From the NCBI GenBank assembly GCA_964486045.1, contig CAZALK010000001.1, positions 552,242-616,241 on the forward strand: 64,000 nucleotides of DNA. Reading direction: 5' to 3'. Shown one piece after another: positions 5,267 to 61,291 of this stretch (its first letter is position 1; each line of letters starts with the position of its first letter). A model generated the notes under the pieces. That model saw nothing but the letters and a program-made list of their open reading frames with translations, was not told the DNA's origin and made no database searches. A program made the position numbers and the translations under genes. The DNA is from an uncultured archaeon (GTDB taxonomy: Archaea > Asgardarchaeota > Lokiarchaeia > Sigyniarchaeales > SOKP01).

Positions 5267-6718
5267 TTATTCTAAATTTTCATCTGCCTTGATGTGATTG
5301 TTTTGTACATAAATGGTTTCTAGGTTAGGTAGAACTTTAGTTTTCAGTATGTTGATTTGGTCTAAAAATCCCTTTCTCAGCTTAAATATTTCTTTATTAA
5401 TAACCAAAGTAGGGTTAACTGAAGTATAGGATCCATTAGTTGCTGAAATCCACTCCCTTTGATTTAATTTTTTAAGAGCATCTCTAACAATTTCTTTTTC
5501 AGTTTTCATTACATTACTCAATGTTGATTCACTAGCAATTCCTAATGATAAAAGAGTTGTGTAGGTTCTTATTTCAGGATCAGAAACGTTTAGAAATTGC
5601 ATATCCTTTAATATAGTTCCATCTATTTGTGTAATTCGCGTTTTTTTCCTCAGAGATTCTTTATCGATTTTTAAGATATCAATTTCATTAGAAGTAACGA
5701 TTTTTTTGGCCTTTACTATCTCATTAAAGATTTTTGCTCCTATTTCTGTTCGTACTACTACACTATTCCACTCGTTTTTAGGTACACCTACGCTTCCTAC
5801 AGATATATCAGCAATTTCAGCACTAAAATCTTTGCAATATTGACAACTTTCCCATGTATATTTCTTAATTTCCTTTAATGGAACCTTTTTTATAGTATCA
5901 TCATTCAAATAGAGATAGAATTTACCGTGCGAAACATCCATTTTCTTCACGCTAATTAGTGGTATTCCAAGCTCTCCCTGGATAAAATTTGTCATTAAAT
6001 CATAAGAATAGTTTGAGAAGCAAAAAAGTCCTATTATTAAGGTAAACTTCCCATATTCTTTTGAAAGAGGTGAGAACAATTGTAATTTTCTTACTGCATG
6101 AATTTGGCAAGGCATCCCAACAAATGCTAATTTTTCTAGTTTAAACTCATTAATAGCATTGTTATAGCTGCTTAAAGTTGGGGCGATAGTATATTTAGAA
6201 CCCATACACGACATTATTTCATTTGCTGTTCTCGCGATTATGGGTTTTGGAAACCAATGATCATCTTTATCTGTAAGAAGAACTCCGTCTATTAATCCAG
6301 TATCTAGAGCATGAATGAGCAGTGAAGATACTACTCCCCCGTTTTGAGCAACTTTCAATATTACATCATCCGTAGTTTTTGCCGCAACTATGTTCTGATA
6401 ATACCCCAATGGAAACCTTTTTTTTACTTTATCCTTAAATAATTCTCGTTCAAATATCTCTGCAGGAAAATACGTCCTAGGACAGTACCTGAAGCAAGTA
6501 GAACATTCAGGATCATACTCTAATAGTGTAGGCTCATTTTCATTCATCCCTATACGAGGGCATAATGAATCACATGCCCCACACAACACACAATTTCCTT
6601 TACTTATCACATGGTTATGTAATTCTTGAAACCCAATTCCAAGAACATTTGATTCCAAATAATTTTTCAGCTGATTTCTTCCTTCCATTTGCTTTTCCTC
6701 TATTTTATCATTCCCCAT
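5267..6718 (-). CDS. F420 hydrogenase/dehydrogenase beta-subunit family protein with N-terminal ferredoxin and C-terminal TrmB-like winged HTH
   Basis: CVLCGACDSLCP / CSTCFRYCP; AQNGGVV, GSKY, VGMPCQ, IGLFC, CQYCKDF..E.ADISVG; extra ~115-aa HTH-like tail. Confidence 0.85.
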   Translation of the reverse strand: MGNDKIEEKQMEGRNQLKNYLESNVLGIGFQELHNHVISKGNCVLCGACDSLCPRIGMNENEPTLLEYDPECSTCFRYCPRTYFPAEIFERELFKDKVKKRFPLGYYQNIVAAKTTDDVILKVAQNGGVVSSLLIHALDTGLIDGVLLTDKDDHWFPKPIIARTANEIMSCMGSKYTIAPTLSSYNNAINEFKLEKLAFVGMPCQIHAVRKLQLFSPLSKEYGKFTLIIGLFCFSNYSYDLMTNFIQGELGIPLISVKKMDVSHGKFYLYLNDDTIKKVPLKEIKKYTWESCQYCKDFSAEIADISVGSVGVPKNEWNSVVVRTEIGAKIFNEIVKAKKIVTSNEIDILKIDKESLRKKTRITQIDGTILKDMQFLNVSDPEIRTYTTLLSLGIASESTLSNVMKTEKEIVRDALKKLNQREWISATNGSYTSVNPTLVINKEIFKLRKGFLDQINILKTKVLPNLETIYVQNNHIKADENLE

Positions 6719-31360: not shown

Positions 31361-31485
31361 AGCGGGGTGGGCTAGCCTGGTTTATGCCGCAGGGCTCATA
31401 CCTTGATGAAGTGCGGAAAAACAAAAAATACCGTTCTTTAGAATGAGAAACCCTGAGATCGTTCGTTCAAATCGAACCCCCGCTA
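31361..31485 (+). tRNA. initiator tRNA-Met(CAU) with 49-nt intron at 37/38 (31401-31449)
   Basis: A1:U72 acceptor AGCGGGG/CCCCGCU, GGG/CCC anticodon stem, CU-CAU-A, central helix CUCA/UGAG. Confidence 0.92.
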
Positions 31486-57800: not shown

Positions 57801-59540
57801 GTGAATTTTAGCATTATGAGTGAAATGAAAACTGAAGTATATATAAACAAGATTATTGAAAATACTGGCTTAACAAGAAAAGAAATTCAAGATATGGTTG
57901 GAGATAAAAAGAATGAATTAAAAGGTTTAATATCTGAGGAGGGAGCATTATTTATTATTGCCAGAGAGTTGGGTGTTGATGTAAAGGAGGAGAATAAAGA
58001 GTTAATACAGGATATCGACATATTTATATCAGATATTTCTCCTAATATGAAAAATATCAATTTAGTTGGAAGAATTAATGAGATCCATCGCGTTAACAAA
58101 TTTAATAAGACCGATGGTGGAGTTGGTTATGTGGGTTCTTTCTTATTACACGATAAGACAGGAGATATTCGAATTGTATTATGGGATGACCAAGTAAATA
58201 TATTTAATGACAATAATTTTGAAATAAATGAATTAGTTAAAATTATAAATGGAACTGCGAGGAAAGGGAGATATGATGAGCTGGAAATACATATCGGAAG
58301 ATTTGGAAAAATAATATTATCTCCTGATGATATAGATTATAAAGATTATCCCAAAATAAAATTTAAATTATCGAACATAAATGAAATTAATTTGGGTCTA
58401 AAATCTATATCAATTGAGGGTAGAATAATTCAGATTTCACCAATAAAAGAGTTTACAAAAAAGGATGGCGAATTAGGGAGGGTAGGATCTCTAACACTTT
58501 TAGATTCTACAGGAGATACAAGATTAACATTTTGGAACGATGATATTGAAAAAATTGAAAAATTAGAAATTAATGATGTCATCACAATATCTAATCTTAC
58601 TCCAAGATTAAATACTTATGATTCTAAATCTATTGATCTGTATGCTAATAGAAGCTCGGTTGTTAAAAAGATATCAAAAGACATACAAATAAAGGGAGAG
58701 TTAGTACAAAATATTGGCATGCTGCAAAATCATAAAGGTATTGTATCATTTAAAGGGAAAATAATATCGATTGATAATTTAAAAACAATTGAATCAAAAT
58801 CTGGTGAAACATTTTCACTTTTAGGATTTGTAGTTAGTGATGATACTGACGGGATTAGAATTACAATATGGAGAGAAAAAGCGGAGGAATTCTCAAAGAA
58901 ATTGTCGATTGGTCAAGGATTATTACTAAAAAACGTTATGGTAAAGTACAGTAGCTTCTCACAAAGAAATGAAATTTCATTAATAAATGAATCAATTTTA
59001 GAATTAAAAGAATTTGAAATTGAGAACTTGAAGACAATAGATGTAACGAAACCTAACTCTCGGGCTAATTTTTCTGGTAATTACAAAAAAATCGACTCAA
59101 TTAATGTTCCGACTAATGTTGAATTAAAGGGTTATATTGCGAAAGATCTCAACAATATAAATATTTATGAAGCATGCATAAAATGCTTTAAAAAAGTGGA
59201 TAACTGTACGTGTAATGAGACAAACGAAACAGAATATCGAATGATTGTTAATCTTTTAATTGATGATGGAAGTGGTTCAATTAGAGTGACATTTATTGGT
59301 GATATAGCAGAAAAGTTTATGATGGTAAAGACAGAAAAACTCGTTCAAATTAAGGAAACTCCTGATTTTGATAAATTTATGGAGAAAAAATCTTCTGAAC
59401 TTTTGGGTAAAGACATAATAATTAAAGGTAAAGCAAAATTCAGCGACTATTCAAACTCTTATGAAATAATGGCTTATGATTTCAAATATTTAAATGTTGA
59501 TGAAGAATTAGAAAGGGAAATAAGAAAAATTGAAACCTAA
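57801..59540 (+). CDS. replication protein A large subunit (RPA70-like, multiple OB folds + Zn finger)
   Basis: GLISEEGAL.IIA.ELG; DKTGDIR.VLW, DSTGDTRLTFW, DDTDGIRITIW, DDGSGSIR; ACIKC..CTC. Confidence 0.9.
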   Translation: MNFSIMSEMKTEVYINKIIENTGLTRKEIQDMVGDKKNELKGLISEEGALFIIARELGVDVKEENKELIQDIDIFISDISPNMKNINLVGRINEIHRVNKFNKTDGGVGYVGSFLLHDKTGDIRIVLWDDQVNIFNDNNFEINELVKIINGTARKGRYDELEIHIGRFGKIILSPDDIDYKDYPKIKFKLSNINEINLGLKSISIEGRIIQISPIKEFTKKDGELGRVGSLTLLDSTGDTRLTFWNDDIEKIEKLEINDVITISNLTPRLNTYDSKSIDLYANRSSVVKKISKDIQIKGELVQNIGMLQNHKGIVSFKGKIISIDNLKTIESKSGETFSLLGFVVSDDTDGIRITIWREKAEEFSKKLSIGQGLLLKNVMVKYSSFSQRNEISLINESILELKEFEIENLKTIDVTKPNSRANFSGNYKKIDSINVPTNVELKGYIAKDLNNINIYEACIKCFKKVDNCTCNETNETEYRMIVNLLIDDGSGSIRVTFIGDIAEKFMMVKTEKLVQIKETPDFDKFMEKKSSELLGKDIIIKGKAKFSDYSNSYEIMAYDFKYLNVDEELEREIRKIET

Positions 59541-59676: not shown

Positions 59677-60111
59677 TTATTGAGAAATCAGACATATATC
59701 GCTAAATTCTTCAGGGTTCTTAATAAGATTATTATATAATTCATGGATCTTCTCAGTAGTTATGTTTAAAAGTTGATGATTGAATGGCCAAACACCAACT
59801 ATTATATCGCCTAATTTTTTAACGTTACCGATTAAATATCCTCTTTTTTCTCCATTTGATGTATAGAGGATTACTAAATAATAATTGAAGTTAAATTTTG
59901 TCTCAGCATTACCCACAACTATAACTTCTTCAATATTTTGAAAAAAAACTATCTTCTTATTTTTTGCACTTAAATTTTTTAATTCCAAAATCAAATTTGC
60001 AGGAATTGTTATGGGATTTTCTACGTTTAAATCTTTAAAACTTAAAGTGAGATTTCTATTCTCAAATTGCTCGATTGCTTTAAATATGACTTTATAAATT
60101 ATAGAATCCAT
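59677..60111 (-). CDS. hypothetical protein
   Basis: Clean ORF downstream of aIF1. Confidence 0.7.
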   Translation of the reverse strand: MDSIIYKVIFKAIEQFENRNLTLSFKDLNVENPITIPANLILELKNLSAKNKKIVFFQNIEEVIVVGNAETKFNFNYYLVILYTSNGEKRGYLIGNVKKLGDIIVGVWPFNHQLLNITTEKIHELYNNLIKNPEEFSDICLISQ

Positions 60112-60206: not shown

Positions 60207-60527
60207 TTACTTCTGCTGGATAAGTATATTTTCTTCAGGAAACCCTAAATCGATTAGCAGTTTTTTTATCTTAAATCGATGATCTCCTTGAAGCTCAACT
60301 TCATTATCTCTTACAGTTCCACCAGAGGCGCATTTCTTTTTTGCTTTTGTCAAAATGTTTTTCAAATTTACATCAAAGCTTCCGACAAAAGTAATTACTG
60401 TAACAACACGCCCCCATTTACGCCTATCGTTTGAGATTATTATTTGTTGTTCATCAGCGCTTAAACTATCACAAATACACAGCTCTTTTGGAAAACTACA
60501 TAACGGACATATGTCGTCGTCTTTAAT
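60207..60527 (-). CDS. sui1: translation initiation factor aIF1 (SUI1/YciH), probable ATT start; absent from ORF track
   Basis: IKDDDICPLCSFPKELCICD...RRKWGRVVT...CASGGTV...VELQGDHR...LGF*; in-frame TAA at 60534-60536, no NTG before conserved residues. Confidence 0.93.
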   Translation of the reverse strand: MKDDDICPLCSFPKELCICDSLSADEQQIIISNDRRKWGRVVTVITFVGSFDVNLKNILTKAKKKCASGGTVRDNEVELQGDHRFKIKKLLIDLGFPEENILIQQK

Positions 60528-60754
60528 ACTCTCTTATCACAACCTTCGTTATTCAAAATATATTTATTATTAATTAAAAGGTACTAAGCAATAATAGAAT
60601 AAAATCTTATAAAAATCTTTTTCATTTTAGAAAATAACTCTCTTCTTATTCACCCTATTTAAAAGAAAGCGTAATCAAAAAAGTATATAAAGTTAAATTT
60701 TTATTATTTATAAATAAGTGTGTTCTTTTTGTTTGGAAATTTAGGTGGTTTACG

Positions 60755-61291
60755 ATAGGACAGAGTTCATGGATATTTAAAGTTATAGTGGCTGGTGCGG
60801 GGGGAGTGGGAAAAACAGCAATGATAACACGTTACTGCTCCGGAAAATTCGAAGAAGGTTATAAAATGACAATTGGAGCGGGATTTCACACCAAATCTGA
60901 AGTTCTTGATACAGGAGAAGCCGTTAAAATGCAGTTATGGGATTTTGCTGGTGAAAAGCGGTTTCGTGAACTCTTACCGGATTATTGTAAGGGGGCGAGT
61001 GGTGCTTTTATCTGTTTTGATATTACTGATTATGATACTTTCAGAGAAATTCAGGGGTGGCTTAAAATCATCCGTCAAAAAGCTGGCTTCGTTCCTATAA
61101 TCCTAATGGGTATGAAATGGGACCTCCAAGATCATGAAGTAGATTTTGAAATTGCGAATAATTATGCTCTACAGGCAAAATGTAATCAGTGTGTATTCTG
61201 TTCTTCAAAAGGGGATATAAACATAAATGAATCATTTCAAGCTATGGGAAAATGGTTGATTTACTTCGCAACTCAAACCGATAATAAATAA
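60755..61291 (+). CDS. Rab-like small GTPase (start probably non-canonical, upstream of GTG 60788)
   Basis: WIFKVIVAGAGGVGKT, TIG, LWDFAGE.RF, GMKWD, CSSK; no prenylation motif. Confidence 0.9.
   Translation: MGQSSWIFKVIVAGAGGVGKTAMITRYCSGKFEEGYKMTIGAGFHTKSEVLDTGEAVKMQLWDFAGEKRFRELLPDYCKGASGAFICFDITDYDTFREIQGWLKIIRQKAGFVPIILMGMKWDLQDHEVDFEIANNYALQAKCNQCVFCSSKGDININESFQAMGKWLIYFATQTDNK

Follow-up and report, generated by a model that had tools for sequence, protein, structure and literature searches.

An AUU start codon in the gene for initiation factor aIF1 of a Loki-type Asgard archaeon and its probable role in autoregulation

In the window analyzed here, which is the whole stretch of 64,000 nucleotides from an uncultured archaeon of the Lokiarchaeia, the gene for the initiation factor aIF1/SUI1 presents no canonical start codon, and the question arises of where its translation begins and whether a start-fidelity factor could limit its own synthesis through such a start. 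A sequence-only reading had proposed initiation at AUU, with a feedback resembling that of bacterial IF3. The minus-strand sequence on which it was based (TGA TAA GAG AGT ATT AAA) was confirmed at its place, as was the lack of a canonical start ahead of the zinc knuckle, over the entire stop-to-stop frame of 108 codons (60533 to 60207, minus strand, terminator at 60209 to 60207). In particular, the frame is shut upstream by an in-frame double stop, TGA TAA (60534 to 60539, minus strand), whose TGA position is likewise occupied by TGA in 52/70 genomes of the Loki-type family, and contains no ATG, GTG, or TTG between these stops and the first Cys codon (60509); an ORF lister using normal starts did not report aIF1 among its ORFs of at least 60 amino acids.

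The identity of the product is clear from a Pfam scan (PF01253 SUI1, 67.6 bits against a cut-off of 25.5) and from the alignment with the archaeal aIF1 structure 4MO0 (E value of 5e-26, residues 5 to 103, from the zinc knuckle onward). Together with the alignment of sister lineages, these data delimit a coding sequence of 106 amino acids initiated at ATT (60207 to 60527, minus strand). The N-terminal zinc knuckle (60471 to 60509, minus strand), located by alignment to 4MO0, lies upstream of every canonical start; its four Cys residues are invariant in 21 Asgard sequences, and the alignment that includes 4MO0 shows that the basic loop RRKWGR is retained. Zinc knuckle, basic loop, SUI1 core, and single copy are shared with aIF1 of Pyrococcus, Methanocaldococcus (4MO0), and Sulfolobus, and, by likeness to the Sulfolobus and Pyrococcus proteins, 30S binding and rejection of near-cognate codons are putative functions of aIF1 in this genome.

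The genome, rated 99% complete, carries one copy of aIF1, and no second intact gene was found in it; across the Loki-type family, the frame is intact, 82 to 95% identical, and present once per genome. Among relatives that carry a name, the nearest are bins of Promethearchaeota (Loki-type Asgard). As for the reads, two public runs, possibly the source of the assembly, show the same letters at the start, and none of the differences listed for runs X3 and X4 falls at 60525 to 60527. Since the two runs agree and none of the 70 family genomes has ATG at this position, an assembly slip can be ruled out. An exact look-up of two forms of the aIF1 protein matched no entry. In two other genomes, the matches are irregular: G006 (C1) has aIF1 in two places about 350 kb apart (L017 and L028, residues 1 to 27 and 22 to 107), due to an assembly break, an inversion, or an insertion, and G007:C18 (L027) has a second, divergent copy with two internal stops, which represents a pseudogene or contamination. 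In the window, aIF1 lies outside the ribosomal protein cluster; a conserved gene of 144 amino acids without a Pfam match (59677 to 60111, minus strand) is located 3' of it, and a gene with an RPA-like OB fold (57801 to 59540, plus strand) faces it.

To establish the start codon, aIF1 genes were gathered from about 140 Asgard genomes, and the codons ahead of the zinc knuckle were read, leaving the ambiguous starts of G020, G164, G168, G187, and G176 out of the tallies and of the tree described below. The start is ATT in 61 of the 70 genomes of the archaeon's own Loki-type family (12 genera), ATA in 5, ATC in 3, GTG or ATA in 1, and ATG in none, counts that overstate independence inasmuch as the family genomes are related. 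The third base is thus varied, yet it is never G after AT, and the retention of ATT itself in 61/70 genomes places it beyond chance. Sequence conservation begins at this codon, and an in-frame GTG upstream of it, where present, is part of the Shine-Dalgarno (SD) sequence. The main proof comes from the sister family, where the aligned position is occupied by ATA in three cases, TTG in six, GTG in one, and ATG in three, and from one further family, where it is ATG: because the position alternates with ATG and TTG in sister lineages, it can be recognized as the aIF1 start. Among the sister-family genomes, two closed ones exemplify this variation, with TTG in G039 (L086) and ATG in G049 (L084). 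Initiation of aIF1 at the ATT of positions 60525 to 60527 (minus strand), as originally suggested, is therefore well supported by the comparison of these genes. The accompanying expectation that gene callers would miss or truncate the gene was borne out only in part: in JGI, ENA, and Logan, many entries are shortened to 70 to 90 amino acids, and some database entries begin at the Ile directly before the first Cys, whereas in several NCBI entries this codon is already taken as the start. The proteins are often labelled YciH in databases.

The context of the start is distinctive. A split SD, AGGTTGTGAT (60536 to 60545, minus strand), is complementary to the genome's 16S tail in 8/10 bases, with a duplex energy of -9.3 kcal/mol; its 9-mer is exact in 47/70 family genomes and is absent from the 5' ends of all other genes in this genome. 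The spacer of 9 nt given in the sequence-only reading is correct when counted from GTGA, but from GTGAT, as it was put there, it is 8 nt; in the family (n = 70), the spacer is 9 nt in 53 genomes and 8 nt in 10. Further upstream, the alignment of the upstream regions revealed a conserved BRE/TATA-like block (60592 to 60622, minus strand; TATA-like box at 60614 to 60607), which suggests a leadered mRNA with a leader of about 55 to 60 nt and no ATG inside, the transcription start being placed according to the usual archaeal promoter spacing. The initiator tRNA-Met (31361 to 31485, plus strand), recognized by its A1:U72 pair, GGG/CCC anticodon stem, and CAU anticodon, contains an intron of about 50 nt located after the anticodon, and ARAGORN overlooked it. 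A special initiator tRNA was rejected, as the sole initiator found, in a tRNA scan left incomplete by introns, is an ordinary CAU one. No conserved RNA structure emerged over the aIF1 start, where the consensus fold was empty; a weak hairpin occurs in the archaeon's own genus only and may contribute to the GAC bias there.

This bias concerns codons 2 to 6 (60510 to 60524, minus strand), a zone poor in out-of-frame ATG according to the Asp and Ile codon counts. In the family, Asp before G is encoded by GAC 81 times and by GAT 8 times in these codons, against 29 and 98 times in the gene body, while for Asp before other bases the two counts are 23 and 25; similarly, Ile before TG is ATA in 5/69 cases, against 66/90 in the comparison. 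Out-of-frame ATG is thus avoided just downstream of the AUU, as would be expected if AUG outcompetes AUU in local scanning. A weaker trend of the same kind extends over the genome, where an out-of-frame ATG within 20 nt was observed in 8/74 genes with an ATT, ATA, or ATC start (hereafter ATH) versus 76/296 windows further down. The out-of-frame mini-ORF of four codons noticed earlier at 60496 to 60510 (minus strand) exists as described, but it lacks conservation, for only 5/70 genomes have the first of its ATGs; since out-of-frame ATG is moreover avoided next to it, a role as a regulatory element or uORF was rejected, and the mini-ORF is considered incidental. In a related strain of run X4, a change at 60510 abolishes it. 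At the second Cys, 61/70 genomes have another out-of-frame ATG further along (as ATG-TAG in 44), but A-ending codons before other Cys codons yield equivalent ATGs.

An AUU start can be interpreted only against the background of the other genes, for which ribosomal protein clusters of 40 genomes were compared. An ATH codon occupies the Met position of uS14 in 8/16 family genomes, of uS3 in 4/16, and of uL15 in 3/14, and also occurs in eS4 and uL22; uS14 has a non-ATG start in 11/16 family genomes. In the archaeon's own genome (L269, G000:C15), uS3 starts at ATC (about position 5560) and uS14 at ATA (about 9510), and a PheT-like gene, named from its N terminus (L291:96-1772, minus strand, G000:C1), has an apparent CTG start 5 nt behind GGTGA. 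Close to the 5' ends of genes in this genome, the triplet 6 nt behind GGTGA is ATH in 41/101 in-frame cases versus 5/176 out-of-frame ones, and the excess of ATH starts amounts to about 50 to 140 SD-led genes, depending on the definition of the SD and on the background. Single genes confirm the tendency: TFS starts at ATA here and at ATG in 25/27 relatives, FwdC at ATT here and at ATG in 20/27. The small GTPase (Rab/Roc-like, Pfam Ras/Roc) divergent from aIF1 (60743 to 61291, plus strand) represents an internal control with a near-cognate start, ATA at 60755, 6 nt behind a newly gained SD (AGGTGG, 60743 to 60748), whereas 45/48 family genomes have ATG; SD and ATA occur together in the archaeon's own genome and in two of another genus. 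The GTG start at 60788 chosen by the ORF lister for this GTPase would remove the first strand before the P-loop. Because AUU and AUA starts are thus a family-wide, SD-led habit, the AUU of aIF1 is by itself no sign of a special loop.

However, aIF1 departs from this background. In 27 control families from the same genomes (the automatic procedure dropped families low in ATG, such as uS14 and uS3, which were counted by eye), ATG is the start in 482/540 cases (89%), and the 15 to 19 ATH starts are scattered among genera; an SD-like motif precedes 14/15 of the ATH starts versus 144/412 ATG starts. In other genes, ATG and ATH interchange within a single genus, but ATG is absent from aIF1 in all 12 genera, and, while other ATH starts peak 5 to 6 nt behind GGTGA, that of aIF1 lies 9 nt behind its split SD. 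With ATG in 0/70 genomes against 89% in the controls, the weak start of aIF1 appears to be conserved beyond the background.

Other archaea offer a comparison without such a habit. In Thorarchaeota (13 genomes, the family being assigned by identity with L211), aIF1 starts at CTG in 8 cases, GTG in 4, ATT in 1, and ATG in none, even though a 200-kb sample of one genome showed no excess of ATH or CTG in other genes and the ribosomal proteins mostly start at ATG. The start is ATA in Baldrarchaeum (L187) and in two more Asgard families, and CTG in another; samples of these lineages likewise showed no general ATH or CTG excess, and in samples of 200 to 400 kb from two sister-family genomes the ATH excess is weak or none. 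It follows that a weak start nearly unique to the gene of the factor is found in Thorarchaeota and the other sampled families and not in the archaeon's own. Many other Asgard families start aIF1 at ATG, for which reason a loop based on this start would not be universal in Asgard archaea. Among non-Asgard archaea (n = 69, a sample rich in Thermoplasmata), and different from the gene studied here, aIF1 mostly starts at ATG (65 cases, with TTG in 3 and ATA in 1); in an aIF1 of Aenigmatarchaeota (L232), no canonical start is present, and ATA behind an SD is the likely one. On a quick aIF1 tree of 100 columns, the near-cognate label needs 10 changes, at least 4 of them forced by strong branches; having no direction, this tree does not separate an ancestral from a repeated origin.

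Self-limitation of fidelity factors is known from two systems. The infC gene for IF3 in Escherichia coli starts at AUU and is under translational autocontrol (Butler et al. 1987, reviewed in PMC4705826), and in Staphylococcus aureus the infC start is AUA, a near-cognate codon being conserved in this gene (PMC13009471). The aIF1 gene resembles E. coli infC in that a fidelity factor's own gene starts at AUU behind an SD; on the other hand, the aIF1 fold is unrelated to that of IF3, the feedback is proven for infC and inferred for aIF1, and AUU starts are very rare in E. coli, unlike here, where dozens of genes start at ATH. In eukaryotes, eIF1/SUI1 is autoregulated through an AUG in poor context (Ivanov et al. 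2010, cited in PMC6237735 and PMC4705826). The family (PF01253) is shared and the logic is alike, but eukaryotes weaken the context of AUG under scanning, whereas aIF1 in this archaeon has a start codon that is itself a near-cognate one and is positioned by an SD. Near-cognate starts behind strong SDs, a motif on which the ATH starts of the Loki-type family likewise depend, are also known for cvfC1, ccpN, and citZ of S. aureus and pcnB of E. coli, where they amount to a handful per genome, compared with about 50 to 140 genes here.

Sequence comparison establishes the AUU start of aIF1, the position of its SD, and a selection against ATG both at the start and immediately behind it, and the biochemistry of aIF1 suits a similar circuit. 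At the P site, the factor competes with the initiator tRNA (PMC6237735, PMC6412873) and, as published for Sulfolobus and Pyrococcus in vitro, rejects mismatched codon-anticodon pairs (PMC6237735, PMC4705826); Sulfolobus 30S complexes bind both AUG and AUU mRNA without aIF1 and AUG mRNA alone with it (PMC4705826). From the distribution of aIF1 start codons and this published discrimination against AUU, we infer that aIF1 probably limits its own synthesis via its AUU, by a feedback like those of infC and eIF1; this interpretation is backed by the fixation of a non-ATG start in aIF1, which recurs in further lineages of Asgard archaea, and in it aIF1 would be a normal translated gene. The split SD on a leadered mRNA would position the 30S subunit, and the initiator tRNA (CAU) would start at AUU with a third-base mismatch. 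An abundance of aIF1 would lead to rejection of its own AUU mRNA, whereas under scarcity of the factor the AUU would be accepted. Such negative feedback would set the stringency of start codon selection, with a set point in this family permissive enough for the approximately 50 to 140 other SD-led ATT, ATA, and ATC starts. In the most speculative step, aIF1 might act as a sensor for the whole class of near-cognate starts. Counting against the feedback, uS14 also has a mostly non-ATG start, though it is no fidelity factor, and the ATH starts of ribosomal proteins indicate that, in this family, an SD may make AUU a reasonably efficient start.

The alternative that survives best, although we regard it as unlikely, is a fixed attenuation without feedback, in which AUU, split SD, and long spacer keep aIF1 low because an excess would block near-cognate starts. 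A fixed weak start fits plain low expression as well as it fits autoregulation, and so do all the sequence signs of selection for it; besides, in S. aureus, output falls to about 10% with non-canonical starts (PMC13009471), and E. coli pcnB and S. aureus ccpN are precedents. Yet, if aIF1 rejects AUU as published, feedback follows almost automatically, and several lineages chose the codon where a weak promoter or SD could suffice. Less probable still is a by-product of relaxed start selection, whereby ATH behind an SD is read almost like ATG and an ancestral ATT of aIF1 was kept by inertia. The in-frame excess of ATH behind GGTGA, the ATH starts of TFS, FwdC, and the neighbouring GTPase where relatives have ATG, and those of essential ribosomal proteins all agree with it. 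However, this explanation is opposed by the constancy of aIF1 among genes that flip within a genus, leaves unaccounted for the CTG and ATA starts found in Thorarchaeota and in further families where such codons show no overall excess, and conflicts with the avoidance of nearby ATG, which implies that AUU is weaker than AUG. Finally, a start elsewhere or otherwise (a later Ile codon, as in the database entries that begin just before the first Cys, frameshifting after initiation at an upstream GTG, RNA editing, an unusual initiator tRNA, or a nonfunctional gene) is highly improbable, given that residues are conserved after the ATT and not before it, that sister lineages carry ATG or TTG at this very position, that the frame is intact and present in one copy per genome, and that the initiator anticodon is the ordinary CAU.

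With respect to the literature, reviews list only AUG, GUG, and UUG as archaeal start codons, and self-regulation of aIF1 is not described in the reviews consulted; one ATT start has been noted for an Asgard tubulin (PMC13394414). In a search short on subscription papers, we found no published report on the start codon of aIF1 itself or on a frequent use of ATH starts by Lokiarchaeia, nor, in the literature searched, one of an archaeal start-fidelity factor limiting its own synthesis. Thus, the logic of autoregulation is known from IF3 and eIF1, and what would be new is its occurrence on archaeal aIF1.

If the loop is true, the principle of self-limiting fidelity factors would reach the third domain, within the eIF1 family, and the near-cognate start of aIF1, conserved in several Asgard families, represents a natural substrate for testing aIF1 proofreading. 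The ATH starts behind SDs also mean that databases contain truncated versions of many Loki-type proteins, aIF1 included. Should the loop exist, aIF1 would tune the other ATH genes of the family as well. It is possible to hypothesize, more tentatively than autoregulation itself, that aIF1 was made a stringency sensor repeatedly among Asgard archaea via AUU, AUA, AUC, or CUG and that, in the Loki-type family, the output of about 100 SD-led ATH genes, including those of ribosomal proteins, is set by the loop as a genome-wide stringency regulon and possible forerunner of eIF1 autoregulation. Such a regulon, if true, would sit in the lineage closest to eukaryotes.
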